A stretch of DNA of 54,759 nucleotides from a virus (Duplodnaviria; Caudoviricetes). Positions 21,907 to 36,373 of the stretch are shown one piece after another. Below the pieces are notes generated by a model, which made no database searches, was not told the DNA's origin, and saw only the letters and a list, made by a program, of their open reading frames with translations. Every line of letters starts with the position of its first letter. Within the stretch, counting starts at the first letter, position 1. The stretch spans positions 1-54,759 of the IMG/VR virus record IMGVR_UViG_3300030389_001655. One strand, given 5' to 3'. The position numbers were made by a program, and so were the translations under genes.

Positions 21907-22614
21907 ATGTTAGACCAGGAGATATCAAATATTATTGACGAAGCTATTGTCAAAAAAAACAAAGAAGTTAAGCAAAGAACTTATCTTGGTGCTTCTAGCT
22001 TGGGCGATTCCTGTTCCAGGAAGATACAATATCGGTATATGGGCAAGCCCATTGATGATCAGCGGGACTTTGATGCAAAGACACTGCGAATATTTCAGTT
22101 TGGTCATGAGATAGAACTAAGTGTAGCTGGTTGGCTTAGACAAGCTGGATTTGATTTACGAGTTCAGGATAAGAATGGCGAACAATTTGGATTTAGTATA
22201 GCTGAAGGTGAGGTCAAAGGTCATATTGATGGTGTTATCTGTGGAGGACCTTTGAATGCTAAGTATCCTATGTTGTGGGAATGTAAGTCAGCCAATGATA
22301 AAAAGTTTAAAGAGTTTCAAATCAAAGGTGTAACTTTAGCTAATCCTGTATATGCAGCACAAGTCGCATTGTATCAGGCTTACATGGAGCTAACAGACAA
22401 TCCTTGTTTGTTTACTGTATTAAATAAGAATACAAGTGAAATTTATTATGAGTTTATACCTTTTAACAAAGCTTTAGCACAGGACATTAGTGACAAAGCA
22501 GTAACAATACTTGAAGCAACAAAAGCAAATGAAGTATTACCACGAGTCGCACAGTCTCGTGATTACTTTGCTTGCAAATATTGTGAGTTTCAAGATACTT
22601 GTTGGAGTAATTAA
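21907..22614 (+). CDS. Cas4-like / PD-(D/E)XK exonuclease
   Basis: YLGASSLG..C.R, GHIDG, ECKS, Q...Y, C-terminal CKYC.....C (1+3 Cys); start taken at MLDQ. Confidence 0.85.
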   Translation: MLDQEISNIIDEAIVKKNKEVKQRTYLGASSLGDSCSRKIQYRYMGKPIDDQRDFDAKTLRIFQFGHEIELSVAGWLRQAGFDLRVQDKNGEQFGFSIAEGEVKGHIDGVICGGPLNAKYPMLWECKSANDKKFKEFQIKGVTLANPVYAAQVALYQAYMELTDNPCLFTVLNKNTSEIYYEFIPFNKALAQDISDKAVTILEATKANEVLPRVAQSRDYFACKYCEFQDTCWSN

Positions 22615-22646
22615 ATATGAGGACGAAGGTAGTTTCGCCCTCATAT
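22615..22646 (+). promoter_or_regulatory. Leader hairpin upstream of primase-helicase, loop GGTAGT
   Basis: ATATGAGG-a-CGAA / TTCG-c-CCTCATAT inverted repeat; no U-tract after it. Confidence 0.5.
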
Positions 22647-22675
22647 ACTTCAGCCAATGAAGTGAGGTCAGTATA

Positions 22676-24844
22676 ATGAACATTATAAAATTTGGCAATA
22701 AGAATAGGGATATGTCAGCCAATGAATTAGTCGATATGATTAGTCAGAAAGTCCCAGCCAGTGTACAAATTAACGCTCTTCGGGATACTTATCCACAAGG
22801 AGAAATTAGAGGAGATGTGTTTACCATCGGGTCATTACATGGTGAACCTGGCAAATCTTTAAAAATAGATATTAATCCAAGATCACCATACTTTATGAAG
22901 GGATCGGATTTTAATGGAGCCGAGGGTGTTGGTGGTATTGTAAAGATTTTAATGGAAGGCAGAAACATGAGACTGCCTGAAATCAGAGAATTGTTCGGAA
23001 ACTATTTGGACGAATCGTCACCTTCGCAGCCAGATATACCACAAGAACTTAGCGTAACATTTAAAAAGACATATGACATAAACACGCCATTTGATCACGA
23101 GCACTTATATCTGTCAGTTGATGGCGAACTCTTATGTCGTGTTCGTAGGTATAATATAAAAGATGAGAATGGCAATCCAGTTATGGATAGTCATGGCAAG
23201 CCCAAAAAAGAGTTCAGGCAGTTTACAGATGCGTCTTATCCAAAGATACCTGATGTAAGACCTTTGTATAATCTGCCCAATGTGGTTGCTTCAGAAAAAG
23301 TCATATGGGTTGAGGGCGAGAAATGTGCTGATGCACTGAATGAGATCGGATATACTGCAACGTGCACAATGGGAGGAGCGGGTATGCTTTCTCGTAAGTC
23401 AGCTAGTCGGTTTGATTTCTCACCATTACAGGACAAAGAACTTATTATATGGGGTGATAATGACAATGCTGGGCGTAAGGTAGCTGAACTGGTACAAGAA
23501 CTGGCATTGAATGCTGGTGCAAGATCGGTAACCACATTAACGCCACCAAGAGGTAAGCCAGAGGGTTGGGATGCCGTTGATGCTATATCGGAAAGCTTTG
23601 ATGTCCAACATTTTTTAAATACGACAGTTAAACATACCAGACGTAATATAAATTTACTGGACGATAGTTTACTGGTCAGCAGATTTGAAGGTAATGCACC
23701 CGAACAAAAGTTCCTGGTCGATGGTACATTCCCTCTGGGTGTACCAATAATATTTTCTGCAGCAGGTGATGCTGGTAAAGGAATGATGACACTTGACTTA
23801 GCTATGAAAGTAGCATCGGGTCAGCCGTTAGCTCAGAGTTTTGGTAGCTCCATCGGGGAGTTTGGCAACGTGGTAATCTTCACGGCAGAGGACGATGAGG
23901 CAGAAATGCACAGAAGAATTGAGCGTTTGGATCCGAACAATTTAAGATTTTCTTACAGGCATGAGCTACGAGTCGTGTCACTTCCTAATGTAGGTGGTGT
24001 GTTCCCAATACTTCAAGATACCAGAGATGGCTACAGCACCAGCGAAGAATTTGAAAAACTTTACGAACAATTATTGCAAATGAATAACCTGAAGTTGATT
24101 ATCTTTGATCCTCTGGCTTCTTTTGTTCATGCTGATGTCAATGCTGATCCAGCGGCAGGAGCTGCTTTGACTGGTTTACTGGCACAAATTGGTACAGAAA
24201 CTGGTGCGTCAGTCGTGATGTGTCACCATATGACAAAGATTAAAGACGATACAGTGGTCAATACTCCAGAGCAAGCAAGGTTGCTTATAAGAGGGACAAG
24301 TGCACTGGTTGATGGTGTTCGTTGTGCGTTTGCGTTGTGGCAAGTTGATGAAGCTACTGGGCGTAGACGTTGCATGGATATTGGGACTGAATACGAGAGA
24401 AACAGGTGTTTTGATGGTGCAGTTGTAAAATCTAATGGACCAGCTAACAGAAATATTAGACATTTCGTCAGAAATAGTTACTCTGGATTATTAGAGGACA
24501 AGACTGAAGAGATTAAAAGACTGCACTCTGGTACAAACAGAGAGATTAAAAAAGATGCCTTGTTCGCTTGGATAGCAACCTGTGAGAGGGAGGGCAGAGC
24601 CTTGACACAACAATCGGGAGCAGATGCAATACAACAACGTATGGTTTCAGATGCTGATGCACCAAGGGTGTTGCAGAACTTGACGCAGCGAAGCATTGAT
24701 GGAATTGTTCGTGAACTTATCCAGGAATCACGAATCGGGAAATACTCATTTTCAGCATCGGGTGGTCGTAAATGGCTTGGCACAATAGATGGCGTTATGT
24801 CCAGTGGTGAGTATGAAGCAACCACAGCAACGGATAATGTCTAA
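22676..24844 (+). CDS. Primase-helicase (TOPRIM + AAA_25/RepA-type helicase)
   Basis: WVEGEKCADAL, GDNDNAG, WDAVD (TOPRIM); GDAGKG, FTAEDD, IIFDPL, HHMTK, RGTSAL. Confidence 0.88.
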   Translation: MNIIKFGNKNRDMSANELVDMISQKVPASVQINALRDTYPQGEIRGDVFTIGSLHGEPGKSLKIDINPRSPYFMKGSDFNGAEGVGGIVKILMEGRNMRLPEIRELFGNYLDESSPSQPDIPQELSVTFKKTYDINTPFDHEHLYLSVDGELLCRVRRYNIKDENGNPVMDSHGKPKKEFRQFTDASYPKIPDVRPLYNLPNVVASEKVIWVEGEKCADALNEIGYTATCTMGGAGMLSRKSASRFDFSPLQDKELIIWGDNDNAGRKVAELVQELALNAGARSVTTLTPPRGKPEGWDAVDAISESFDVQHFLNTTVKHTRRNINLLDDSLLVSRFEGNAPEQKFLVDGTFPLGVPIIFSAAGDAGKGMMTLDLAMKVASGQPLAQSFGSSIGEFGNVVIFTAEDDEAEMHRRIERLDPNNLRFSYRHELRVVSLPNVGGVFPILQDTRDGYSTSEEFEKLYEQLLQMNNLKLIIFDPLASFVHADVNADPAAGAALTGLLAQIGTETGASVVMCHHMTKIKDDTVVNTPEQARLLIRGTSALVDGVRCAFALWQVDEATGRRRCMDIGTEYERNRCFDGAVVKSNGPANRNIRHFVRNSYSGLLEDKTEEIKRLHSGTNREIKKDALFAWIATCEREGRALTQQSGADAIQQRMVSDADAPRVLQNLTQRSIDGIVRELIQESRIGKYSFSASGGRKWLGTIDGVMSSGEYEATTATDNV

Positions 24845-25049
24845 GAAGGGCAGATACAGTAAGACCAGCAAAAAATACAACGAACTGATTGCGTTTACCA
24901 AAAAATTAATTCACGAAAAATCAAACCAGCTCGATGAGTCCGAACAATTATTCGAGGACGATCCCAGGGCAGCGAAGGAAAAAGATTATGGTCGAGTCAG
25001 AAGAAAGCCGACTCATGTTTTTTCTAAAAGTACATTAAGTGATATTTAA
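24837..25049 (+). CDS. Hypothetical protein
   Basis: ATG overlapping the primase end; FEDDP.A motif. Confidence 0.55.
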   Translation: MSKKGRYSKTSKKYNELIAFTKKLIHEKSNQLDESEQLFEDDPRAAKEKDYGRVRRKPTHVFSKSTLSDI

Positions 25050-25072
25050 AAAAGGGTGGAAAAATCCACCCT
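25048..25072 (-). terminator. Intrinsic terminator (U-tract on minus strand; possibly bidirectional)
   Basis: AGGGTGGA/TCCACCCT stem with an A6 run on its left. Confidence 0.65.
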
Positions 25073-25141
25073 CATTTCATCTTTACAAGAATAGTTATCA
25101 ACAAATCTTACATAGGTAGTGTTCTGTTAATTTTCTATTCT
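25048..25141 (-). ncRNA. Candidate sRNA-2 (~90 nt)
   Basis: Possible minus promoter TTGTAA(25174-69)-N16-TATATT(25152-47); long hairpin with two G-U pairs valid only on the minus strand; ends in a terminator; no ORF. Confidence 0.4.
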
Positions 25142-25180
25142 CCTCTAATATAATTAATTAAAAAAAAATTACAATAGTTG

Positions 25181-25208
25181 TTGACATATATGTAATCAAT
25201 ACTATATT
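25181..25208 (+). promoter_or_regulatory. Sigma70-type promoter with operator
   Basis: TTGACA-N16-TATATT; spacer contains GTAATCAATAC. Confidence 0.7.
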
Positions 25209-25241
25209 GAACTATTATTAACTATCTTTTAGGAGGTCAGA

Positions 25242-25418
25242 ATGGGTAGAAAAACAACATTAGAAATAAAAAAGCAGTTTGACGATATGCTTTTTGAAAT
25301 CATAAAGACCAGGACTTTAAATTATTCAGACGAAGTCAATAGTTTGGTGAAAATAATTTCACCACAAATCGAGAAAATTAACCAATTATTGGAGGAGAAG
25401 TTACATGGTAAAAGCTAA
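25242..25418 (+). CDS. Hypothetical protein (58 aa, not in ORF track)
   Basis: AGGAGG RBS; MGRKTTLEIKKQF...HGKS. Confidence 0.65.
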   Translation: MGRKTTLEIKKQFDDMLFEIIKTRTLNYSDEVNSLVKIISPQIEKINQLLEEKLHGKS

Positions 25419-25656
25419 TGAAATGTCAATACAAGATTGGGAGGATTTAAATCGTTTCTTGGATCACGAGAACGAGATCTTAGATCGCCCATCAAGTTCT
25501 TTAACATCAGATGCTATTTTAGCTATTGATCACATTTTAAAAGTGATTGAGAAGAGAGATGTTAAGAAGTGTACTCAAGATACTCAAGAGTCTTACGTTG
25601 TGTTAAAAGATTTAAAGCACAAGTTAGAAAATGAGTATGTTATTTATAGACCATAG
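25405..25656 (+). CDS. Hypothetical protein
   Basis: GGAGGAG RBS. Confidence 0.6.
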   Translation: MVKANEMSIQDWEDLNRFLDHENEILDRPSSSLTSDAILAIDHILKVIEKRDVKKCTQDTQESYVVLKDLKHKLENEYVIYRP

Positions 25657-25696
25657 TCAAATTTATTTGACTATGCAATCAATGCAATGTAATAAT
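25652..25696 (+). promoter_or_regulatory. Inverted repeat plus probable promoter/operator
   Basis: CATAGTCAAA/TTTGACTATG inverted repeat; TTGACT followed by GCAATCAATGC. Confidence 0.45.
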
Positions 25697-25723
25697 ATCT
25701 TTAACTATCAAAGGAGCAAGTAG

Positions 25724-25906
25724 ATGAGTAGATACAAAGATAAAATGATGGGAGTAATGCAAGAGTTTTATTCCTATTTAACTGATGATAGCATGACAAA
25801 TGATCAAGCTATCGCTAGAATTAAAGAAGATCATGGCGAGCATTGGGCAGAATATGTTCGTGACGAGATTGAAACTGAGGAGGCACAATATGAGACCATT
25901 GGTTAA
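25724..25906 (+). CDS. Hypothetical acidic protein
   Basis: AAAGGAG RBS. Confidence 0.6.
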   Translation: MSRYKDKMMGVMQEFYSYLTDDSMTNDQAIARIKEDHGEHWAEYVRDEIETEEAQYETIG

Positions 25907-26306
25907 ACGTATCGATATGGCTTTACATATCCAGCAGTTGTGTGCAGATCATGGCATTACTGTTACCTATCAATCGTTAGATGATGCCGTTCCTCATTAC
26001 TATGCCAGCCCTAGTCAAAGGCACATACATATTAGACCGACTAAGAATACGGGTTATTATGTATCGGCTTTGCATGAGATCGGGCATATTATGGGTGATA
26101 ATCAATCTTATAACAACACAGTAAAGGAGAGAGAAATTGGTGCATGGATTTGGGCAATGCTTAATGCAAAAGTTTGGACAGATACGGCGGATCGTGTCAT
26201 GTCGAGGGCTTTATCGTCTTATGGTGTTAATGAAGAGGAAAGTAGGGAAATCCAACAAAGGTGGAATCCCTGTCACAGGGACGATGAAGAACAAATCGCA
26301 GTTTAA
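25890..26306 (+). CDS. HExxH metallopeptidase-like protein (ImmA/IrrE-like)
   Basis: ALHEIGH plus downstream E..AW..A; start moved to MRPL using the GGAGG RBS. Confidence 0.65.
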   Translation: MRPLVKRIDMALHIQQLCADHGITVTYQSLDDAVPHYYASPSQRHIHIRPTKNTGYYVSALHEIGHIMGDNQSYNNTVKEREIGAWIWAMLNAKVWTDTADRVMSRALSSYGVNEEESREIQQRWNPCHRDDEEQIAV

Positions 26307-26405
26307 TAAGATTTTTATGAAAAATCTTATTAGTCATATTAACAATGCAACTCCCACAAGGGAGTTGTCTTTGTTTGAAAAAATTTATGTAAAGGTAGTA
26401 AAATT

Positions 26406-26636
26406 ATGTCGAAGATGATTGTTTATATATGTGTGGTATGGATCGCAGGAAGTCGTCACGATGGTGGTATAACCAAGTGTATGTGGCATGAAAGCCAGGT
26501 GAAGTATCAGACAGTAGCTGAATGTGAAGATGATATCAAGCACTCAAAAAAGTTGCTTAGACTTAGAATTAGACAAGAGTTTGGAGATCGACCAGAGTCT
26601 ATATCAATTCAGCCTAGTTGTGTCATGGAGTCGTAA
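26406..26636 (+). CDS. Hypothetical Cys-containing, possibly exported protein
   Basis: Hydrophobic N-terminus, Y.T..EC motif, terminal Cys. Confidence 0.5.
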   Translation: MSKMIVYICVVWIAGSRHDGGITKCMWHESQVKYQTVAECEDDIKHSKKLLRLRIRQEFGDRPESISIQPSCVMES

Positions 26637-26637
26637 A

Positions 26638-26766
26638 ATGAAGCACAAGGATATGTTATCAAAAACGCACTCCACATCCCGTAAATGGGAGAAGAGCATG
26701 AAGAAGCGGGCTAAAAAATCGCAACGTCAATTGGATCGGAGGGTAGCTAATGAAAGCCAAAAGTAA
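26638..26766 (+). CDS. Small basic protein
   Basis: GGAG RBS; MKHKDML... Confidence 0.45.
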   Translation: MKHKDMLSKTHSTSRKWEKSMKKRAKKSQRQLDRRVANESQK

Positions 26767-27112
26767 AAGATGCTGCAACTGTAACCAGAAAATTGTTCGG
26801 GGTATGGCGTTCCCGCTTATGAAAAAAAGCCTGTGCATGGGATGTTTTGTTGAGTTTGGATTAGCCCAGAAGCTGGATATTGATGTGCATCATTACATGA
26901 ATTGTTCGCATGAACATTGTTTTGATTGTGAATATGCGTTTATGAAAGCACTCTGGGCACTGGACTATAAACAGACCGAAATGGGCAACTGGTACAGGTG
27001 CACGCCAGACCCGAAAATTGTTCGTATTTATGACGATTTACTTACCAACTTACCAACTTCCACGGGAAGTAAAAACTTCGGTAAGTTGCAAGGTGTTGAT
27101 TTTGTTGAATAA
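26750..27112 (+). CDS. Cys-rich putative Zn-binding protein
   Basis: CCNC, CMGC, C..EHCFDC; GGAGGG RBS; 3' end runs into the repeat region. Confidence 0.55.
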   Translation: MKAKSKRCCNCNQKIVRGMAFPLMKKSLCMGCFVEFGLAQKLDIDVHHYMNCSHEHCFDCEYAFMKALWALDYKQTEMGNWYRCTPDPKIVRIYDDLLTNLPTSTGSKNFGKLQGVDFVE

Positions 27113-27256
27113 ATTTAATTTACTTACGAAACTTACCATTTACCTTGGTAAGTTAATTGTGGCTTGTAAGTCATTGATTTTATTGCTACTTACCAACTTA
27201 CCGAACTTCCCCCCCTATAGGGGGTATAGGGGGGTGGTAAGTAACCCACCTCCCCC
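27040..27256. repeat. Iteron-like ACTTACC repeats with IHF-consensus sites (putative ori or packaging element)
   Basis: Three blocks of tandem ACTTACC-like units with inverted GGTAAGT; CAAGGTGTTGATT 27089 and TAAGTCATTGATT 27167; CCCCCTATAGGGGG palindrome. Confidence 0.6.
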
Positions 27257-27292
27257 AACCCTATTTAACGTAACAACAAGGAGTGAAAACGT

Positions 27293-27805
27293 ATGCCAAA
27301 AGTAGGCGAAAATTTACCAAAGGAACAAAGAGACAAAGGTCTTAAAAGATTAACGCAACGCCAACAGGATTTTCTCGATAATTTTATACACAAGGATATG
27401 ACGCAGACAAATGCAGCCAGACAAGCTGGATATAGCAATCCTAGCGTAGATGCAGTGAGGTTGCTAAGAAATCCTGTGGTGCAGGAGCGTTGGCAAGAAA
27501 TGCAGGAAGAGAACAGGTCAAGATTTGGTGTAACGCTTGATAAATCTCTTCGGGATCTTTTAAAGATCCGTAATGAGGCTCTGGAGCGGGAAAGGTATAG
27601 CGAAGCTATTCGGGCTGAAGAACTACGCTTAAAGGCTTCTGGACTGCTTGTTAACAAGGCTCATGTGCTACATGAGAAAGTAGATAGCATGACGAAGGAG
27701 GATATTCTGGCTGAACTGGAGAATTTGCAACGAAAAGCACAGGATCGGATGAAAAAAGCTAACGTCACCCATATACGCCCAAAAAAGATAGAGAAAAATA
27801 GCTAA
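27293..27805 (+). CDS. terS: Terminase small subunit
   Basis: LT.RQQ.F......T.AARQAGYS......RLLRNP.V HTH typical of TerS. Confidence 0.8.
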   Translation: MPKVGENLPKEQRDKGLKRLTQRQQDFLDNFIHKDMTQTNAARQAGYSNPSVDAVRLLRNPVVQERWQEMQEENRSRFGVTLDKSLRDLLKIRNEALERERYSEAIRAEELRLKASGLLVNKAHVLHEKVDSMTKEDILAELENLQRKAQDRMKKANVTHIRPKKIEKNS

Positions 27806-27809
27806 GAGT

Positions 27810-28320
27810 GGGTTGATCGGGCTCTGCACATGGCGTGTCGCCTGACGGAGTTGCCGAACAATTTCCAGTAGCATCGGGATCGGGAGTCTGGATCGGGCTG
27901 TTTTACGCTGCCAATGCGTAGAATTGTTCGCTTTCAGGTGCAGGTAAGCTCCTGGTATCGGGATCGGATCGGACTCCAGCCTCCTGCTGCAGGCTGTATA
28001 CTCACAATTGTTCGTCTTCAGGGTCCTGCCCTGGTCAGGCAGCAGGGGAGGCATCGGAGTCGGGAGGCTGTCCAGGCGTAACCTGCTGCCGAACACGCAC
28101 AATTGTTCGGAGTCAGGTCCAGCAGGGTGTGCTGCCCAGGCGAGATCGGGGTGAATCGAAGCGGGACTCGCTGCGTCCTGCCCTGAACGCTCACAATTGT
28201 TCGGACTGGTAGGTCCAGCAGGTGCTGCACAGCCTCCTTCACCAGGCTACACCTGCTGCTGTCCTGGTGAATACTCACAATTGTTCGCAGTCGTTACGCT
28301 GCAGGTGCTGCCTCCAGGCT
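27810..28320. repeat. GC-rich non-coding array with phased (CAC)AATTGTTCG units and GATCGGG / CCTGCTG motifs
   Basis: AATTGTTCG at 27922, 28006, 28101, 28195, 28279; 42/60 G+C in 28021-28080; internal inverted repeats. Confidence 0.85.
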
Positions 28321-28353
28321 GTAAAAAAAAATAAAAAAAAATGTTTTTATGTG

Positions 28354-28407
28354 TTGACACTATGTAATCATTACTATATATTATATATATAATTCAGCCA
28401 AAGGAGA
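28354..28407 (+). promoter_or_regulatory. Cassette promoter, operator and shared leader
   Basis: TTGACA-N17-TATATT, GTAATCATTAC palindrome, CAGCCAAAGGAGA at 28395. Confidence 0.75.
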
Positions 28408-28413
28408 TTTAAA

Positions 28414-28806
28414 ATGAGTTATGAAAAAATAAAAGAAGCAGTTATCAAGCAATTAAAGTGCGATGATGTGCAGCAAACTTTCAAAGATGTTGTTAAAGGT
28501 GGAGCCTCTGGAGGTTTTGGTGGTTTCATTTACCATAACGAAACTGTTAAATTTGCGAAAGACAACATCAAACATATCTACAAATATTTAAAGGAGCAAG
28601 CCAGCGACATGGGCGTTAACGCTTTTGAGATGGTGCAAGGCTTTAATTGTTTGTACGATATCCAGCCCACTTTGTCAGAGGTAGCTGACACGATACATGG
28701 GTATCCTGACCAAGCAACAATAAATGATGGGGTTGATACTCAGATATTAAATGCGTTGGCTTGGTATGCTTTGGAAGAAGTCGCCTTCAACGAGACAGAA
28801 ACCTGA
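28414..28806 (+). CDS. Conserved phage early protein of unknown function
   Basis: G.SGGFGGFIY..ET..F and NALAWYALEEVA motifs; own promoter and terminator. Confidence 0.75.
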   Translation: MSYEKIKEAVIKQLKCDDVQQTFKDVVKGGASGGFGGFIYHNETVKFAKDNIKHIYKYLKEQASDMGVNAFEMVQGFNCLYDIQPTLSEVADTIHGYPDQATINDGVDTQILNALAWYALEEVAFNETET

Positions 28807-28828
28807 TCGGGCTAAATTGTTCGGGAAG

Positions 28829-28865
28829 AATCGGGAACGGGGTTCACCTGCTCCCGATTTTTTTT
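28829..28865 (+). terminator. Intrinsic terminator
   Basis: AATCGGGA...TCCCGATT stem followed by a T-run. Confidence 0.7.
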
Positions 28866-29014
28866 GTGCTGGTTCTGGGTCTAACTTCATCAGGTTAAGG
28901 TCCAGCTACCTGCCTGGGAAGGAATACGCACAATTGTTCGTACTCACGGCTGGACGCAGGTCATGCCTGGAAAGAGCTGTGCCTGCTGAAATTGTTCGGA
29001 GTTGTGCCTGGAAT

Positions 29015-29090
29015 AAAAAAAGAGTCGAGAAATATTTGGAAAGGAAAATTCTCGACTCTTCTAAATGTAACGCTCACACATAATGAGCAT
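29015..29090 (-). ncRNA. Candidate trans-acting antisense sRNA-1 (~76 nt)
   Basis: Minus promoter, 5' hairpin ATGCTCA/TGAGCGT, 12-bp terminator stem with U-tract; loop complementary to 30664-30677. Confidence 0.65.
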
Positions 29091-29095
29091 TTATT

Positions 29096-29124
29096 AATAT
29101 AGTATTGATTACCAGATATGTCAA
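29096..29124 (-). promoter_or_regulatory. Minus-strand sigma70-type promoter with operator
   Basis: Reverse complement reads TTGACA-tatctgGTAATCAATAC-TATATT (17-bp spacer). Confidence 0.75.
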
Positions 29125-29147
29125 TAGAAAAAAAATAAAAAAAGTTG

Positions 29148-29200
29148 TTGACATTATATATAGTAATGATTACTATGTATATATAAACAGCCAAAGGAGA
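29148..29200 (+). promoter_or_regulatory. Cassette promoter, operator and shared leader
   Basis: TTGACA-N17-TACTAT; ATAGTAAT-G-ATTACTAT perfect inverted repeat 29160-29176; CAGCCAAAGGAGA at 29188. Confidence 0.75.
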
Positions 29201-29205
29201 AAAAA

Positions 29206-29382
29206 ATGAGAAAAACAATTACAGGTTACAATATAATTATACGTTGGAGTGATGGCACTAAGGAAGATCTTGATGCACATGGTCAGATTCCTTACTTCAA
29301 AAATGTAGATCACTACCTTGATACAATAGAGGAAGAAATTAATCAAAACGAAGATGAAATAGAGGAGGCGGTAAATGACTAA
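29206..29382 (+). CDS. Small acidic protein (58 aa, not in ORF track)
   Basis: AAGGAG RBS; MRKTITGYNIIIRWSDG...EEAVND. Confidence 0.7.
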   Translation: MRKTITGYNIIIRWSDGTKEDLDAHGQIPYFKNVDHYLDTIEEEINQNEDEIEEAVND

Positions 29383-29464
29383 GTGGGAAGTTGCATTGAC
29401 AATCGTGCAAATGGTTACCTTCTGGGTAATGGTTTGTGCAGTCGTAATAATCGTACCATTTTAA
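29375..29464 (+). CDS. 29-aa hydrophobic membrane peptide (not in ORF track)
   Basis: GAGGAGG RBS; MTKWEVALTIVQMVTFWVMVCAVVIIVPF; followed by a terminator. Confidence 0.6.
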   Translation: MTKWEVALTIVQMVTFWVMVCAVVIIVPF

Positions 29465-29477
29465 GAAGGGAGGAGCT

Positions 29478-29508
29478 GAAGCTGGGTTTGTAGCCCAGCT
29501 TCTTTTTT
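29478..29508 (+). terminator. Intrinsic terminator
   Basis: GAAGCTGGG/CCCAGCTTC stem plus T6. Confidence 0.8.
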
Positions 29509-29553
29509 ATCCTGTAACCGAACAATTGTTCGTATTTAAAGAAGGAGGAATAA

Positions 29554-29787
29554 ATGGCAAAGTGTGAAATATGTGATGATTTTAATGAAGATCATATAGA
29601 CAACGAAGGTGACGACTCATTATATGAGAGCGAACAATATAAGCCTAATTTATATTTTTACTGGCATGGAGACATAGAGGAGGATTATGATATGGGAGAA
29701 TATGAGTGTATATGTGTTAGTTGCTTTAATGGTTTAGATCTGCAGGGAGAAATAAAATGGAAAAAAGTTAAAAAAGATATTGACTAA
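29554..29787 (+). CDS. Small acidic protein with CxxC pairs
   Basis: AAGGAGG RBS; CEIC...CVSC; Asp/Glu-rich. Confidence 0.65.
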   Translation: MAKCEICDDFNEDHIDNEGDDSLYESEQYKPNLYFYWHGDIEEDYDMGEYECICVSCFNGLDLQGEIKWKKVKKDID

Positions 29788-29839
29788 TGTAGTAATCAAT
29801 ACTATATATATACTATAAATTAATTTCAGCCAAAGGAGA
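29780..29839 (+). promoter_or_regulatory. Cassette promoter, operator and shared leader
   Basis: TTGACT-N17-TATATA; TAGTAATCAATACTA; CAGCCAAAGGAGA at 29827. Confidence 0.7.
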
Positions 29840-29844
29840 AAAAA

Positions 29845-30348
29845 ATGCAGAAAAAAATTTATTTTGCTTACGGAGCAAACACTAACAAAGATGCGATGGC
29901 GATTAGATGTCCCAAAGCTAAAGTTATAGGTGGCGGTCATATTTACGGCTACAGGTTAAAGTTTAACAATGTAGCAGATATTGTTCCTGTCAAAGGATTC
30001 GACCAATATGCACCTTGTGTTATATGGGAAATCACAGAGTCTTGCGAAAAATCCTTGGATCGATTCGAGAGTTATCCGTCATTGTATGACAAGATTGAGG
30101 TAACTGGTTACGAGGGAACGCAAGGAGAAAGTATAACTGGCTTTGCGTATGTCATGAACTACAAAGGTTTTCATACACCAAGTCCAATTTATGTCAGAGG
30201 CATTAGGAATGGATTGAAGGGAGTATGGGATAAGTTTTATCATGCAGATATTGATAACCATATTGACAAAGCAATTATAGAAAGTTTTCGTGAAAGCGAG
30301 AAGCCAATGGTTCATCATCAAAGAATCGGTGGGAAGCAGTGGGCGTAA
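29845..30348 (+). CDS. Gamma-glutamylcyclotransferase (GGCT/AIG2-like)
   Basis: YFAYGAN.N...M..RCP.A, VADI, LDRFE.YP.LY motifs. Confidence 0.85.
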   Translation: MQKKIYFAYGANTNKDAMAIRCPKAKVIGGGHIYGYRLKFNNVADIVPVKGFDQYAPCVIWEITESCEKSLDRFESYPSLYDKIEVTGYEGTQGESITGFAYVMNYKGFHTPSPIYVRGIRNGLKGVWDKFYHADIDNHIDKAIIESFRESEKPMVHHQRIGGKQWA

Positions 30349-30363
30349 AACTTTCCTGAGGCG

Positions 30364-30396
30364 AAAGCCCAGACCTTCACGGGTCTGGGTTTTTTT
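30364..30396 (+). terminator. Intrinsic terminator
   Basis: CCCAGACC/GGTCTGGG stem plus T-run. Confidence 0.8.
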
Positions 30397-30612
30397 CTTG
30401 CTGGAGAGCGAACAATTGTTCGTACTGGATCGGGCAGGCAGCAGATCGGGCTGATCGGGGATCGGGCTTCGCAGCCATCTGGCTCATGAAGCATCAACCT
30501 TCCAGTGGTTTTATAGGGTTATAAATAAAAAAAAAAATAAAAAAAAATTTTTTTTAAGTTATTGATTTTATTGGATTTTTTTCTTCAGCTCTAAATTGTT
30601 CGCATTTAGGTA

Positions 30613-30640
30613 TTGTAATGATTGCTATATAGTATATATT
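30613..30640 (+). promoter_or_regulatory. Probable amidoligase promoter with operator
   Basis: TTGTAA-N16-TATATT; GTAATGATTGC overlaps the -35; IHF-like TAAGTTATTGATT at ~30556. Confidence 0.5.
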
Positions 30641-30681
30641 AAATATTGTATTTAATTTTTAATTTTGGAAAGGAAAAAAAA

Positions 30682-31878
30682 ATGCAAAATAAATTTAAAA
30701 ACATAAACAATCAATCAAGATTTGCCTTTGGATTTGAACCAGAGTTTATGAACTCTCAAAATTCAGATTATGATTTAAATCAATTGAATAGAACTAGTTC
30801 AAATCCTATTGGTGGTTTAACAATCAAGACAGATGGTAGCCAAGCAGATTATGAAATGGATTTGCCAGTGTTAGCAGATTGTCAATTGGCTTGGGATTAT
30901 TTAGAACAAGCTTGTAATTTTGTTAGTTCAAATGGTGGATACGTAAACAAAGCTTGTTCTGCTCATGTTCATTTATCCACGTTACCAATTAGATCAGATC
31001 TTACAAATGAAGAGTTTACTATAAAATCAATTCAAATGAAAAGACATTCAAATAATTATTTATCTGATCCAAATAACTTAGAACAATTGTTTGATGTTAA
31101 CTGTCAATTACCATTAGAACTTTATAAAGACATTGGATATAGAGTATCTAAACATATTGATTTTTATAAAAGTACAATTGCAAGATCTAGGCATGATTGT
31201 TATTATGCCAAGTTCCCTAAATCATGTGATCAAATACTTAGAGCAAATCCAACCATTGAAAGCTTGAAGGATGTTTTAAACTCTATTGCTCCACGTGGAA
31301 TATATAAATATACAGCTCTAAATATTAATCATTACAATGTTAAAAAGACATTTGAAAATAGATCACATGGTGGAACATTAGAGATGAACAAGCTTAAAAC
31401 ATGGTTCAAGTTTTTATCTAATATGTTAGATCATAGCCTACAAACTCGATTTAAGCCTTGTACAGTGGCAGAACAATTAAATAGCCCATCATACATAGGA
31501 AGATCTGCTAACACTGTTAAAAGTCAATTATGGGCTTTTTGTAGAGGTCAAGTAAGATCTACACAAGAGATTATGGCTCATTGTAATATTAACAATGCAC
31601 AATCTGTTAGAAGAACAATTTCAGAGATTAGAGCAAATGAAAATTATAGACCATTTGTAGTTACACATAATCAGCAAGAGTTTAATGTTAATTATGGTCA
31701 ATCAGATAATTACAGTAACAATGGTTATGAAATATTAATTCAATCAAATGTAAACAGAAATACAAATGATCTTGAATTTATTTCAGATGATAATGAACGT
31801 GGTTCAAGTTCATTAATTGCTGGATTGGATAGCCAAACGCTAGCAGATCTAAATGAAAGGATTAGACAATTATCATAA
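30682..31878 (+). CDS. Putative amidoligase (COOH-NH2 ligase, Amidoligase_2-like) with C-terminal HTH-like extension
   Basis: FGFEPEF, DGS, E...P.L, VN..C..HVH, KY.ALN, T.E.R...GT motifs; ATG at 30682 after GGAAAGGA. Confidence 0.75.
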   Translation: MQNKFKNINNQSRFAFGFEPEFMNSQNSDYDLNQLNRTSSNPIGGLTIKTDGSQADYEMDLPVLADCQLAWDYLEQACNFVSSNGGYVNKACSAHVHLSTLPIRSDLTNEEFTIKSIQMKRHSNNYLSDPNNLEQLFDVNCQLPLELYKDIGYRVSKHIDFYKSTIARSRHDCYYAKFPKSCDQILRANPTIESLKDVLNSIAPRGIYKYTALNINHYNVKKTFENRSHGGTLEMNKLKTWFKFLSNMLDHSLQTRFKPCTVAEQLNSPSYIGRSANTVKSQLWAFCRGQVRSTQEIMAHCNINNAQSVRRTISEIRANENYRPFVVTHNQQEFNVNYGQSDNYSNNGYEILIQSNVNRNTNDLEFISDDNERGSSSLIAGLDSQTLADLNERIRQLS

Positions 31879-31932
31879 TTGTCTAATCGAATTTTAAAGA
31901 ATAACCTGCTTAATATAGCAGGTTATTTTTTT
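31860..31932 (+). terminator. Tandem hairpins; the second is an intrinsic terminator
   Basis: GATTAGACAATTA/TAATTGTCTAATC over the stop codon; AATAACCTGCT/AGCAGGTTATT plus T-run. Confidence 0.75.
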
Positions 31933-32092
31933 GTCTAAGTTATTGTTTTTATTGAATAAATCGGGGATGGTATACCATAGTCACCACCAAAAATTACATT
32001 TTTTGTCACAAAACTTTCTACACCAAGTTTACCTCAAACGACCCCCATCTGTTTGAAAAACGACCACCAAAAAAATTTTTCACAAAAAAATC

Positions 32093-32121
32093 TTGCACTT
32101 TTGTGCAATCAATACTATATA
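32093..32121 (+). promoter_or_regulatory. Sigma70-type promoter with operator variant
   Basis: TTGCAC-N17-TATATA; GCAATCAATAC in the spacer. Confidence 0.55.
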
Positions 32122-32141
32122 TAGTATGAAATGAGGTACAA

Positions 32142-32402
32142 ATGGCAACATATAGATTCAAGCTCCCTCGTACAAGGGAGTTCAATGTCAGAAGTGACAA
32201 TCATTTAATGCAAGAGATAGCGACTTCGTTGTGGTGTAAGGGCATGGAGATGTCTTCTCTCCTTAAAAACGTAGCCAATGCCTGCTGCGACTGGAATGGC
32301 AAGGCATATCGTTACGGCACGAAGGAAGAATTAATTGCAGACATGAAAAAAAATAATATTTTAATAAACATTGACGAAAGGAAAGCCAATGAAGCGAACT
32401 GA
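32142..32402 (+). CDS. Hypothetical protein
   Basis: GAGG RBS, downstream of a promoter. Confidence 0.65.
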   Translation: MATYRFKLPRTREFNVRSDNHLMQEIATSLWCKGMEMSSLLKNVANACCDWNGKAYRYGTKEELIADMKKNNILINIDERKANEAN

Positions 32403-32790
32403 TTACGGGTATGCAGACCTGACAAGCAATGAGATTTACAAGTTTCGTAAAACTCTAGGCATGAGTCAGGCAAAATTATCCAAAAAACTAGGACTAAGCC
32501 TAAGAACTTGGTGTCATTACGAGTATGGAACGCAAAGAATGCCAGTTTCTGTGCACATGGCACTCCAATTTTTACAAAATGGGGGTGAAGAAGTAGAAAA
32601 AGCACATGAAAATATAAAAAAACATCAAGAACCACTGACAAAATACGACATGGACAGGATTACGAGGCTAAGACAGTCGATAAAAGACACTTTAACGTCA
32701 ATTAAGGACAGTTTAGACCCTATGTCAGCTAAAATCATCACACAAAGCGATAAAGAGATGGGCTTTCTGTTGTCAAAAATAAATAATTGA
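32389..32790 (+). CDS. XRE/Cro-family HTH transcriptional regulator
   Basis: FRKTLGMSQAKLSKKLGLSLRTWCHYEYG. Confidence 0.8.
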   Translation: MKRTDYGYADLTSNEIYKFRKTLGMSQAKLSKKLGLSLRTWCHYEYGTQRMPVSVHMALQFLQNGGEEVEKAHENIKKHQEPLTKYDMDRITRLRQSIKDTLTSIKDSLDPMSAKIITQSDKEMGFLLSKINN

Positions 32791-32798
32791 TATAATAT
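32770..32798 (+). promoter_or_regulatory. Possible promoter of the packaging/structural operon
   Basis: Extended -10 TGaTATAAT 32788-32796 with upstream TTGTCA. Confidence 0.4.
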
Positions 32799-32831
32799 CT
32801 CTACAAGAACAAGTTTTTTGTGGAGAGATAC

Positions 32832-34904
32832 ATGGCAAACGGACCTCTTGGGGGATTTATGCCTACCCCACCATCACCAGGTCAACCACCACAGGTGAAA
32901 TTAGAGACATCTGCTGAAAGTAGGGGTGCTTTCAATAAATTTTTAGGTACTTTGCCGAGAAATGGAGCCGTGGCTCCGATTCAGACAGGGGTTGTTCCAT
33001 CCTCCACAGCTCCTGTCTCTCCAGTGACAAGTAACGTCAATATATTCCAACCACAAATGTCACAAATGGCTCCTATGGCTCCAATGCCTATGATGCCACC
33101 AGCACAACCAGTTGCGATGATGAGAGAGGGTGGAGACCCAATGGATGCTTCTTTTAGTGATTTTTCTGGTTTTGATGACCCCTCTGACCCATTTGGAGGT
33201 GGTGACAGTTTTAATGATTCAAGCGACACAAGTGATCCGTTCATTGGGGAAAGTGTAAGTTTATCTCCAGCCGAAATAGCTGGTGGCACATTAAGCACAC
33301 CAGACACTTCTCTGTTTTCTGACGATCCTGCTACAGGAGCAAATATAGGTCTTGAAAAATCAGGTGGCTTTACAACAGGCGTTGCACCTGGCTCTGGTCT
33401 TTCTGGAGGAAACAGATTTGCAACATTTTTTAATCTTCCGTTTGCACTAAGAGGTGTAGGAAGAGACTTTCAAACAAAATTGAATAGAGATCCAAACTTA
33501 ACAGTAGGTGAGTATTTTGATACATACAATCCTGGTGGTAATGCAGATAGATTGCTTGAATTTGCACAAAATACGGGAAAGTTGAGAGATGATAAACTTG
33601 ATATTGGTGATATGCCCAATATTATGAAAACACAAGCTAAGTTTGAAATAGGTTCTCCAGAGTCAAGAAACATTCCAACAGAGTTATTAAACAGAGCTGT
33701 GCAATCTGTTAATGTAAATGATCCAAAAGAAGTAAGTAATATTTTATTTGACTTTGATCCAAATCCTTTAGCTTTAACTTTAGACGATTTAAATGCACCA
33801 AAAATAGGTGTTCCTCCAATTGGAGAGCAAAGACCAGAATCAAGAGGTAACATTCCATCGTTGAATCCATTTGGAAGGGCTCGACCTGATTTGGTAACAG
33901 ACAGAGAAGATGATGTATTGTCTGAAATAGCAGAAAGAAACGAAGATAGAGCAAGATCTATAGCTGACAGAGGGTTTCCAGTAAGTGTAGATGAAATTAC
34001 AGGTAGACCAAGTATAGCACCAACTGTCGATAATTTACTAAGGTTAGGTCAAGAAGCTCAACAAAGAAGAAATTTAGAAAAAGCAACCAGACCAGATCAA
34101 GCATTAGAAACTTTAGAAGGAAGAAGAGATAGATTGCCAGATCAAGTTTTTGATATTGAAACAATTACTCCAGAAGATGACAGGTTAACAACAGTATCTC
34201 CTGATGTTTTAGCAAGGATTGGTCGTGAACAGAGAATAGATGATGCAAACACATTTAGACAAACTGTTCCCGATGCTGCCAAAATATTTGGTGGCAGACA
34301 AATCACGACAACTCCAAGAGGAATAGATCAAGAGTTATCACCAATAGTAGCTGCAGGCATAGGAGCACCAGAGGAATTTAAACAGCCTTTTCCTGATGCA
34401 GGAATAAAAGTTGGCAACTTTACCATTCCAACACTAACATCTGGGTTAAATTTAATATCTGATTTCTCAAGACAAAGAGTATTTGATGCTGTTCTTAATA
34501 AAGGAGCAACACCCGTCTATGATGGTAATACTCTAGTTGGAGCTAAGATAAATGGAGTTCTTGTTGAGGGCATGGATCCAAATGCACCTATGGACTCTGG
34601 TGATAATCAAGACCCTGTTACAAAGTTTTTGAAAAAAGCTACTGAAGACAAAAAAAAAGAAGACAAAGATGATCAGCCGCCGAATCAAATAGGTGATGTT
34701 GTAATAAGAGATCCAGAACCACCAAAACCGACAGTCGTTAAATCTACAGCTCCTGCATCAACAGCAAGCTTTACACCTGTAGGTTTTAATGTGGGTAACT
34801 TAAATGATTTGATTGCAAGAATAACAGGTGTGCCTACTCCAAGAAGAATGCAAGAAGGTGGCACAGTAGCAGCAGTGGATAGATTTTTATCTAAGGTAGC
34901 ATGA
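32832..34904 (+). CDS. Large low-complexity protein upstream of terL (probable internal virion protein)
   Basis: GGAG RBS; Pro-rich and acidic; MMREGG and MQEGG motifs; coupled to terL. Confidence 0.6.
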   Translation: MANGPLGGFMPTPPSPGQPPQVKLETSAESRGAFNKFLGTLPRNGAVAPIQTGVVPSSTAPVSPVTSNVNIFQPQMSQMAPMAPMPMMPPAQPVAMMREGGDPMDASFSDFSGFDDPSDPFGGGDSFNDSSDTSDPFIGESVSLSPAEIAGGTLSTPDTSLFSDDPATGANIGLEKSGGFTTGVAPGSGLSGGNRFATFFNLPFALRGVGRDFQTKLNRDPNLTVGEYFDTYNPGGNADRLLEFAQNTGKLRDDKLDIGDMPNIMKTQAKFEIGSPESRNIPTELLNRAVQSVNVNDPKEVSNILFDFDPNPLALTLDDLNAPKIGVPPIGEQRPESRGNIPSLNPFGRARPDLVTDREDDVLSEIAERNEDRARSIADRGFPVSVDEITGRPSIAPTVDNLLRLGQEAQQRRNLEKATRPDQALETLEGRRDRLPDQVFDIETITPEDDRLTTVSPDVLARIGREQRIDDANTFRQTVPDAAKIFGGRQITTTPRGIDQELSPIVAAGIGAPEEFKQPFPDAGIKVGNFTIPTLTSGLNLISDFSRQRVFDAVLNKGATPVYDGNTLVGAKINGVLVEGMDPNAPMDSGDNQDPVTKFLKKATEDKKKEDKDDQPPNQIGDVVIRDPEPPKPTVVKSTAPASTASFTPVGFNVGNLNDLIARITGVPTPRRMQEGGTVAAVDRFLSKVA

Positions 34905-36373
34905 ACAACTTACAATATGCTGAGTATTTAAGTGATGATGAGTTACAAAAAGTAGCACCATTACTAAAAAGACTTAAAAAGTTAGAGGACAGATCAGAGT
35001 CTCAAGAAGATTATTTACGTTTTGTAAAAAAGATATGGTCTGGCTTTATCGAGGGCAGACATCATAAGATCTATGGTGAGAAACTGCAAGCTGTAGCTGA
35101 TGGCAAGATCAAGCGTTTAATTGTTAATATGCCACCAAGACACACCAAGTCTGAGTTTGCAAGTTACTTATTCCCTGCATGGCTGATGGGCAAAAGACCA
35201 GATTTAAAGATTATTCAAGCAACACATACGGCTGAACTTGCCGTTGGCTTTGGTCGTAAAGTAAAGAATCTGATTGATAGTGAAGATTTTAGAGATATCT
35301 TTCCTGATGTTAAGCTTGCCTCAGATGCAAAAGCTGCAGGAAGATGGTCAACAAATAGTGGAGGAGAGTATTATGCCGTTGGTGTTGGAGGTGCTTTGGC
35401 TGGACGAGGTGCTGATTTGCTCATTATTGACGATCCTGTTTCTGAACAAGATGCTTTAAGTCCAACTGCTTTAGATGGTATTTATGATTGGTATACTTCA
35501 GGTCCTAGACAAAGATTACAACCTGGTGGATCGATTATCATTGTCATGACACGTTGGGGTATCAAGGATTTAACTGCACGAGTATTGCAAAAACAAGCAG
35601 AAGGTGGTGCTGACAGATGGGAAGTCGTAGAGTTTCCTGCAATATTTCCTGACACAGGTAATGTGTTATGGGAGGAATATTGGTCGAAAGAAGAATTAGA
35701 AGCTGTTAAATCTTCGATACCTGTGTCAAAATGGAACTCACAATATATGCAAAACCCTACTGCTGAAGAGGGTGCAATTATAAAAAGGGAATGGTGGAAT
35801 GTTTGGGATCGTTCTGAGCCACCTGTGTGCTCATACATCATACAATCATACGACACGGCTTTCACGAAGACTGAGCGTTCTGATTATAGTGCTATTACTA
35901 CTTGGGGTATTTTTACACCTGTTGAGGGTGAAGGAGATGCCATCATCTTGCTTGACGCAGAAAAAGGTCGTTGGGATTTTCCAGAACTCAAACTTAAAGC
36001 ACAAGAACTGTGCGAAGCATATGATCCTGACATGATATTGATAGAGCAAAAAGCAAGTGGTACACCACTGACACAAGAGCTAAGACGTATGGGTATACCT
36101 GTAACTCCGTTCACACCAAGCAAAGGTGCTGATAAGTTTGCAAGAATGAATGCTTGTGCACCTGTGTTTGAAAGTGGTATGGTATGGAGACCCGATGCTA
36201 ATTTTGCAGAAGAGGTTGTTGAAGAATGTGCTAGTTTTCCACATGGTGATTTTGATGACTTGGCAGATTCGATGACACAAGCTATACTAAGATTCAGACA
36301 GGGTGGTTTTATCACTACACCTGATGACGAAGATGACGAACCAATTTATAGAAGAAAGATGGAGTATTACTAA
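34901..36373 (+). CDS. terL: Terminase large subunit
   Basis: NMPPRHTKS (Walker A variant), LLIIDDP, MTRW, YMQNP, SYDTAF, DDLADSMTQA nuclease motifs. Confidence 0.95.
   Translation: MNNLQYAEYLSDDELQKVAPLLKRLKKLEDRSESQEDYLRFVKKIWSGFIEGRHHKIYGEKLQAVADGKIKRLIVNMPPRHTKSEFASYLFPAWLMGKRPDLKIIQATHTAELAVGFGRKVKNLIDSEDFRDIFPDVKLASDAKAAGRWSTNSGGEYYAVGVGGALAGRGADLLIIDDPVSEQDALSPTALDGIYDWYTSGPRQRLQPGGSIIIVMTRWGIKDLTARVLQKQAEGGADRWEVVEFPAIFPDTGNVLWEEYWSKEELEAVKSSIPVSKWNSQYMQNPTAEEGAIIKREWWNVWDRSEPPVCSYIIQSYDTAFTKTERSDYSAITTWGIFTPVEGEGDAIILLDAEKGRWDFPELKLKAQELCEAYDPDMILIEQKASGTPLTQELRRMGIPVTPFTPSKGADKFARMNACAPVFESGMVWRPDANFAEEVVEECASFPHGDFDDLADSMTQAILRFRQGGFITTPDDEDDEPIYRRKMEYY

Follow-up and report, generated by a model that had tools for sequence, protein, structure and literature searches.

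The locus and the predicted RNA

The window analysed here is a whole viral contig (IMG/VR record IMGVR_UViG_3300030389_001655; 54,759 bp, estimated completeness 93%) from an uncultured marine podovirus-like phage, and the subject of this report is a predicted minus-strand small RNA whose terminator loop is complementary to the ribosome-binding site (RBS) of an amidoligase gene 1.6 kb away. Features of the locus are listed in Table 1. The amidoligase passes the cut-off of Pfam Amidoligase_2 (PF12224) at residues 57-247, a weak match of partial coverage, and the gene immediately upstream of it is a gamma-glutamyl cyclotransferase.

Table 1 Features of the small-RNA unit, its predicted target and the adjoining signals. 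Positions are those of the window; +, plus strand; -, minus strand.
Feature	Position	Strand	Remarks
Terminator of upstream plus-strand cassette	28839..28860	+	
Predicted non-coding small RNA, ~78 nt	29012..29089	-	Start inferred from -10 box, 3' end from U-tract
U-tract of intrinsic terminator	29012..29019	-	A-run on plus strand
Terminator hairpin	29020..29060	-	12-bp stem (29020-31 with 29049-60), 17-nt loop 29032-29048
Loop seed UUUUCCUUUCCAAA, complement of amidoligase RBS	29035..29048	-	
5' hairpin, variable module	29072..29088	-	Replaced by other hairpins or longer bodies in relatives
Sigma-70-type promoter of small RNA, TTGACA-N17-TATATT	29096..29124	-	11/12 consensus score
Operator-like palindrome in RNA-promoter spacer	29100-29114	-	2 mismatches
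Divergent promoter of next cassette	29148..29176	+	A-rich tract between this promoter and RNA promoter
Amidoligase promoter-like site, TTGTAA-N16-TATATT	30613..30640	+	9/12; overlaps operator-like palindrome
Predicted target, Shine-Dalgarno region TTTGGAAAGGAAAA	30664..30677	+	Ends 4 nt before ATG 30682
Amidoligase gene, 398 aa, Pfam Amidoligase_2	30682..31878	+	26 bits, cut-off 22

An earlier account of this DNA, made from its letters only (the sequence-only reading), had described a consensus minus-strand promoter followed by a 5' hairpin, a perfect 12-bp stem with a 17-nt loop, and a U-tract. All of these were recovered at the same positions, and the minus strand from 29090 to 29010 folds at -27.3 kcal/mol (z = -7.75; 0 of 200 shuffles as stable). 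The 17-nt loop reads UUUUCCUUUCCAAAUAU. The RNA promoter is one of only three sites scoring 11/12 within 22000-36000, where promoter-like sites overall are not enriched (49 vs 42 +/- 7.2 in shuffles). An operator common to the promoters of the RNA and of its target had also been claimed, and operator-like palindromes are present in both spacers (14 matches with up to 3 mismatches vs 3.9 expected). The unit contains no conserved open reading frame (ORF), since its 5' body is swapped or absent in relatives.

The loop was further said to be the exact complement of the Shine-Dalgarno (SD) region of the amidoligase, and this agrees base for base. The window contains only two exact copies of the 14-mer TTTGGAAAGGAAAA, 29035-48 and 30664-77, each on the plus strand; the three neighbouring cassettes, with starts at 28414, 29206 and 29845, carry instead the leader CAGCCAAAGGAG, as the sequence-only reading had noticed. 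When the plus-strand copy within the RNA gene itself is set aside, no plus-strand site in the 54.7 kb forms a better duplex with the loop than the amidoligase RBS (-18.4 kcal/mol vs -15.8 kcal/mol for the next site), and net of opening costs the pairing stays at about -13.4 kcal/mol because the amidoligase leader is unstructured. The relaxed 14-mer motif is not enriched (4 matches with up to 2 mismatches vs 1.9 expected; 18 of 100 shuffles reach 4), and its 8-nt core TGGAAAGG occurs 3 times vs 2.1 expected. The window by itself is therefore a thin case, a single exact 14-mer coincidence, and the argument that the match goes beyond chance rests on relatives.

Conservation among relatives

Relatives were sought with the amidoligase alone, so that the search was blind to the hairpin. 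This gave 52 viral loci with 94% down to 29% identity (denoted L plus a number below); 4 without the N-terminus and 6 distant ones (29-32%) were set aside, and 42 with an intact N-terminus and at least 55% identity (55-94%) were kept. The hairpin is found in 38 of these 42 contigs, 1.4-2.6 kb upstream of the amidoligase, and together with the window they make up a set of 39 sequences. In every one of the 39, a minus-strand promoter of the form TTGACA-N17-TATAxx, with a palindrome, lies 7-253 nt before the stem, so that a promoter of its own and a Rho-independent terminator accompany the RNA throughout. The loop pairs over 7-16 bp with the RBS of its own amidoligase, ending 1-10 nt before the start codon (39/39); complementarity to the translation-initiation region of a separately encoded target is thus conserved, and the outcome that the sequence-only reading had regarded as fatal, relatives keeping the hairpin without complementarity to the RBS, was not encountered. 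The amidoligase RBS is the longest complement of the whole RNA in 6 of 7 loci tested, and in L028 it is likewise the best plus-strand partner of the loop.

The predicted RNA ranges from ~49 to 287 nt among relatives while its 3' terminator hairpin is constant. The 5' part may be absent, one of four unrelated small hairpins, or a body of 110-240 nt rich in G/C hairpins; the RNA of L024 and L057/L059, ~50 nt, consists of hardly anything but the hairpin. Because the 5' part is variable or absent and the minimal forms consist of the hairpin alone, the terminator hairpin would be the conserved working part. A search for complementarity of at least 10 nt between other genes and the variable 5' hairpins gave nothing convincing.

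The long 5' body (RNA of 152-287 nt) is an observation in its own right. Its conserved G/C-rich hairpin modules, combined differently between contigs, are present in L041 (2755-2995, minus strand), L025, L032, L034, L038-L050, L053-L056, L058 and L089; the body of L041 folds with z = -4.9 and gave no Rfam match below E = 0.019.

A scan of marine metagenomes returned 24 contigs, of which 14 have the hairpin, 7 have a GGAAAGG RBS with less than 1.9 kb of upstream sequence and so cannot be scored for the hairpin, 2 belong to another lineage (L089, L090) and 1 is distant; some of them are identical to the viral contigs and are not independent support. One contig, represented by both L016 and L052, has an interrupted amidoligase frame, 27 aa being open from the start and tblastn matching residues 1-22 and 103-367 only, with hairpin and RBS motif intact. 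Another candidate, L013, was dismissed as unrelated; it adjoins a tRNA-like sequence.

Relatives without the hairpin

Four relatives forming one clade (L033, L035, L036, L037) have neither the hairpin nor the GGAAAGG motif in the RBS, which there reads AAAAAGGGAAATTAAG; the L033 spacer passes directly from the GC-rich repeat to the next promoter. In this clade the amidoligase leader is complementary over 18-21 nt (94-95%) to what immediately follows the terminator hairpin of the same gene (L033, 3216-3236 with 4466-4486; L036, 3143-3160 with 4390-4407), and between L033 and L036 the pairing has changed on both sides. The window has no such pair of leader and post-terminator sequence. The post-terminator anti-leader may be a substitute in cis for the trans RNA.

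More distant is L089 (50% identity), in which the corresponding position, preceded by a promoter of the same kind and a long body, is taken by a different stem with a 30-nt loop. A 12-mer of this loop recurs in the L089 amidoligase leader, ~40 nt before the ATG, and the loop also has AGGAG in common with the SD sequence. A pattern search of viral contigs for hairpins of the L089 type gave a single match (L093), rejected as an unrelated GC-rich contig.

Strand on which the hairpin is selected

Of the 12 distinct stems, 6 (30 loci) have minus-strand G.U pairs that become C.A when read on the plus strand, and for these the minus-strand fold is more stable by 3.6-5.3 kcal/mol. The remaining six are symmetric; no stem is clearly better on the plus strand. 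In the aligned stems 96.4% of cells pair. Stem pair 6 is U-A in the window, U.G in 6 hairpins and C-G in 5; pair 10 is G-C or G.U; pair 11 goes from A-U to G-C. One stem pair shows a change on both sides. From the stem variants that pair only as G.U and from these substitutions, the hairpin is judged to be selected as a minus-strand RNA helix.

This bears on the proposal that the motif acts on the plus strand or as DNA, either with a protein, be it a transcription factor or a translational repressor, that binds both copies, or with a decoy SD sequence displayed in a plus-strand hairpin. The two copies are direct repeats on the plus strand, and the plus-strand hairpin still forms at -8 to -16 kcal/mol; selection of the stems on the minus strand speaks against it, however, as does the constant position of the motif within the loop, whatever the loop length. 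In addition, on the plus strand the RNA gene is flanked by the terminator of the upstream cassette (28839-28860) and the promoter of the next one (29148). We consider a role on the plus strand or as DNA very improbable.

Co-variation of loop and ribosome-binding site

The loops fall into five types: A, ATATTTGGAAAGGAAA(A), 13 of the 39 sequences; B, (A/T)ATAATGGAAAGGAA, 6; C, TGGAAAGGA, 11; D, TGGAAAGG(T/C), 7; and E, GGAAAGG, 2. Loops with ..TTTGGAAAGGAAA(A) (type A) accompany the RBS TTTGGAAAGGAAAA, and loops with ..AATGGAAAGGAA (type B) accompany the RBS AATGGAAAGGA, so that long loops and RBS flanks shift jointly (TTTGG vs AATGG). The mean common run is 13.0 nt (A) and 11.75 nt (B) for cognate pairs, and 10.3 and 9.25 nt for crossed pairs. 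When leaders were shuffled over the 30 distinct combinations, the observed sum of 319 (vs 284 +/- 7.5) was reached in 0 of 20000 shuffles, a permutation test that ignores relatedness.

Single cases go the same way. Two relatives with a long A loop inside a short-loop clade (L014, L042) have the matching flank GGAAAA where their sisters have GGT; in type E the T before GGAAAGG is gone from loop and RBS alike. The paired RBS stretch contains four substitutions, three of them A-to-G changes that keep pairing as G.U (L008, L026, L034) and one a mismatch (L051). In a quick tree of the amidoligase (L052 excluded, its amidoligase frame being just 27 aa), loops of types A, C and D are each spread over two clades, and the RNA module and the amidoligase gene have therefore recombined. 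Of the two properties that the sequence-only reading had proposed to follow in related phages, co-occurrence of loop and RBS was found throughout (39/39); co-variation was found as well, but it is partial and comes from few independent events.

Interpretation and alternatives

We propose that the locus encodes a minus-strand small RNA whose terminator loop, antisense to the amidoligase RBS, lowers translation of the amidoligase, and we put the probability of this reading at roughly 0.7. The unit at 29012-29124 would be driven by a strong host-type promoter with the same operator-like palindrome as the neighbouring early cassettes and ended by the intrinsic terminator, the hairpin of which would be the working part. 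The loop of this terminator, rich in C and U, would then pair with the SD region of the amidoligase mRNA, made 1.4-2.5 kb away on the opposite strand; such pairing would block binding of the 30S subunit and reduce translation of the amidoligase, and it may also speed decay of the mRNA. The sequences show the promoter and terminator signals, the selection of the stem on the minus strand, and the complementarity with its conservation and partial co-variation; that the unit is transcribed, that the pairing takes place in vivo, that its effect is repression and what end this serves is what we infer.

Several findings weigh against this proposal. The RNA unit is known from sequence signals alone, and a 14-bp helix within a closed 17-nt loop requires partial opening of the stem. 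No RNA data set was listed among the sequencing runs containing this sequence; two runs of unknown kind, kept as contigs, contain about a fifth of the words sampled. The pairing run is just 7-9 bp in 20 of the 39 sequences (22 in a second count), on the core (U)GGAAAGG, and for the short loops of L041, L054 and L057 the amidoligase RBS is not clearly the best target by energy. The GGAAAGG core, a purine-rich, SD-like string, serves other cassette genes of relatives as RBS too, so that part of its conservation may be ordinary SD constraint. L051 is a counter-example, a long loop facing an RBS mismatch that leaves a run of only 10 nt. The co-variation stems from roughly three or four independent events, and the permutation test takes no account of descent. 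Finally, the loop of L089 pairs at least as well with the RBS of another cassette (-19.3 kcal/mol) as with the SD region of the amidoligase (-17.8 kcal/mol).

Some of these findings would suit a hairpin that is an insulating terminator only, the leftward promoter being half of a divergent region or serving another role (e.g., activating origin-like repeats) and the likeness of loop and RBS being that of A/G-rich, SD-like strings. As a terminator the hairpin is good, and in groups C and D it is bidirectional, with T-runs on either side. Just past it come GC-rich iteron-like repeats. The window shows no enrichment of the GGAAAGG core, which turns up at other RBSs too, and in the short-loop groups no target is unique by energy. 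What an insulator leaves unexplained is a loop of 16-17 nt that is invariant across amidoligase lineages just 56% identical, the change from TTTGG to AATGG alongside the RBS, and the joint loss of hairpin and RBS motif; moreover, the loop motif occurs in 0 of 120 unrelated hairpins from prokaryote genomes that match the stem pattern, which served as negative control. We regard an insulating terminator alone as unlikely.

The RNA could also be a general anti-SD RNA, its C/U-rich loop damping a set of phage or host mRNAs with sites of the GGAAAGG/AAGGAG type and the amidoligase being merely the best match in some phages. Other cassette genes do carry RBSs of the form ACAACA..GGAAAGGA.. (L010:1930, L014:1366, L025:950), CU-rich loops are also present in some 5' hairpins, the L089 loop pairs best with an RBS of the CCAAAGGAGG type, and the bacterial RNAs LhrC and RepG act on several targets through CU-rich loops. 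In the window, however, the 14-mer is unique to the amidoligase, the three neighbouring cassettes using the other leader; the co-variation of the flanks is with the amidoligase RBS; and the amidoligase has the motif in 39 of 39 RNA-bearing phages. A general anti-SD role is accordingly judged quite unlikely.

Between these poles, the small RNA proposed here may have more than one target, because the GGAAAGG core is also the RBS of other cassette genes. The description of the RNA as "dedicated" to the amidoligase, made in the sequence-only reading, is overstated and remains speculation, given the 7-9 bp pairing in about half of the set and the recurrence of the core in other cassette RBSs. Besides the three sites named, RBSs of the ACAACA..GGAAAGGA.. 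form stand before small cassette genes at L027:2393, L032:1770 and L057:2267 and 3741; all have 10-11 nt in common with the loop copy and are possible further targets, and none of these genes is in the window.

A role as antitoxin or timing switch is speculation. The targets of type I toxin-antitoxin systems are small toxic, usually membrane-active peptides, and the target here is a 398-aa Amidoligase_2 enzyme. A wider proposal, which we find doubtful, is that the amidoligase is under obligatory restraint at the RNA level by a modular "addressed" RNA, the loop being a co-evolving address and the 5' body, swapped in the manner of a cassette, perhaps sensing or adding inputs; the clade lacking the RNA would have replaced it with the anti-leader in cis. 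If this were so, the locus would amount to a toxin-antitoxin-like or strict dosage module in lytic phages, and to a set of natural orthogonal pairs of small RNA and RBS.

Only a few trans-acting RNAs are known that phages encode to regulate phage genes. The family described here, found by sequence alone, comprises at least 39 viral contigs in which the natural variants of loop and RBS already resemble a series of compensatory mutations. The proposed repression would flag the amidoligase and gamma-glutamyl-cyclotransferase pair as something that these phages take care to limit; its role in phages is still a guess, namely cell-wall or peptide modification (PMC10580990, citing Iyer et al. 2009). 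Should the small-RNA reading be wrong, a conserved and well-documented divergent promoter-terminator module would still remain.

Relation to known RNAs

The c4 RNA is cut from the same transcript as its target and controls the antirepressor of a temperate phage; the predicted RNA differs in its divergent promoter, which is its own, in having just one seed, located in the terminator loop, and in that its target is an enzyme. Rfam includes a C4 model, and Rfam searches of the window and of 6 loci brought no family up to its gathering score, the C4 profile being absent from the 13 weak matches (E <= 10) in 28980-29140. The likeness is one of action: c4 of phages P1 and P7 (~77 nt; target icd-ant) exposes in its loops stretches that pair around the RBS of another gene of the phage encoding it and block translation of that gene, as a review describes (PMC12197685). 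The window RNA would work like c4 and is not taken as a member of the c4 family.

The sar RNA comes from the strand opposite its target, to which it is complementary throughout, whereas complementarity in the window family is 7-16 nt and in trans. Both would be small phage RNAs that block initiation of translation of a phage gene, ant in the case of sar of phage P22 (PMC12197685).

A C/U-rich Rho-independent terminator loop as seed against a G/A-rich leader or SD sequence is known from bacteria. The terminator loop of RepG (Helicobacter pylori) pairs in this way with a G/A-rich leader (PMC8295292), and LhrC (Listeria monocytogenes) appears to pair likewise through a C/U-rich loop (PMC4132741). 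Unlike the window RNA, both are chromosomal bacterial small RNAs with host targets, and there is no sequence relation.

The ctRNAs repress translation of rep genes. The best likeness in Rfam is to one of them, the plasmid counter-transcript ctRNA_pND324 (RF00238). The window RNA resembles it in its two hairpins, its 17-nt terminator loop and its GAGAA/UUCUC stem end, and an end-to-end alignment with the model scores 40.6 bits (E = 2.8e-5 when 161 nt were searched), short of the gathering threshold, which is 45 bits; of two relatives with other 5' hairpins, L022 scores 19.7 bits and L028 gives no match. When 53 kb of 7 loci were scanned for ctRNA matches under an E-value threshold, one unrelated weak match was obtained, in L014. 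A ctRNA is cis-antisense to the rep leader, whereas the window RNA is 1.6 kb from its target and has on its opposite strand a stretch between terminator and promoter. The likeness to ctRNA_pND324 is one of shape, not of membership.

The neighbourhood, finally, is like the PeSL cassettes of T4-type phages, in which cassettes of 1-2 genes are bounded by repeated promoter-plus-stem-loop modules and shuffled between relatives (PMC2839356, PMC4122927). PeSLs are described as recombination and regulatory modules and not as sources of trans-acting RNA, so that the likeness to the window is one of neighbourhood only.

No paper linking a small RNA to phage amidoligases, or describing this RNA family, was found in the literature searched, from which supplementary files were excluded, and the part of the review that lists phage-encoded trans-acting RNAs has none from uncultured marine phages (PMC12197685). 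The mechanism is known (c4, RepG, LhrC) and this particular RNA family is undescribed in that literature. The statement of the sequence-only reading that such a pair had not been described thus holds for the family and fails for the mechanism, which with c4 and RepG is a textbook one.

Genomic setting

The window is AT-rich (~36% G+C), with genes nearly all on the plus strand, and its PHROGs matches include terminase, portal, tail-fibre, helicase and primase genes. Neither the region (megablast, blastn) nor the amidoligase (tblastn) matched any GenBank phage, and a virion protein matches only distant podoviruses, none above 39% identity (Pelagibacter, Roseobacter, Synechococcus and Pseudomonas Bruynoghevirus-type phages); there is consequently no usable cultured relative. 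A search of prokaryote genomes for relatives of the amidoligase found none.

Short AT-rich cassettes occupy ~27800-30500, each made up of an A-tract, a promoter, the leader CAGCCAAAGGAG and an intrinsic terminator; the promoters have the form TTGACA-N17-TATAxT, with an operator-like palindrome inside the spacer. One of the GC-rich spacers between cassettes is occupied, in reverse orientation, by the small-RNA unit. Two ORFs of this region were rejected as genes, one of 85 aa on the minus strand (28961-29218) and one of 110 aa on the plus strand (28751-29083), both of which span promoter, spacer or hairpin sequence with indels in relatives. Which cassettes are present varies among relatives, as in the shuffling PeSL modules of T4-type phages.

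The GC-rich spacers carry the palindrome GAACAATTGTTCG (41 matches with up to 2 mismatches vs 1.6 expected), at 27800-30500 and also at 24940, 45531 and 49648, as well as ATCGGG, biased to the plus strand (26 matches vs 5 expected). Five repeat copies spaced ~85-95 bp apart at 27900-28290 are iteron-like.

Upstream of the first cassette promoter (25181), a weaker minus-strand promoter-like site within 25045-25174 (TTGTAA-N16-TATATT, 9/12) faces a bidirectional terminator at 25052-25073 and could give a second short leftward transcript. Downstream of the amidoligase, a 139-aa helix-turn-helix protein is encoded on the plus strand at 32371-32790, with weak matches to HTH_19, to MqsA-antitoxin-like proteins and to PHROG repressors; it is a candidate binder of the operator-like palindrome common to the cassette, small-RNA and amidoligase promoters.

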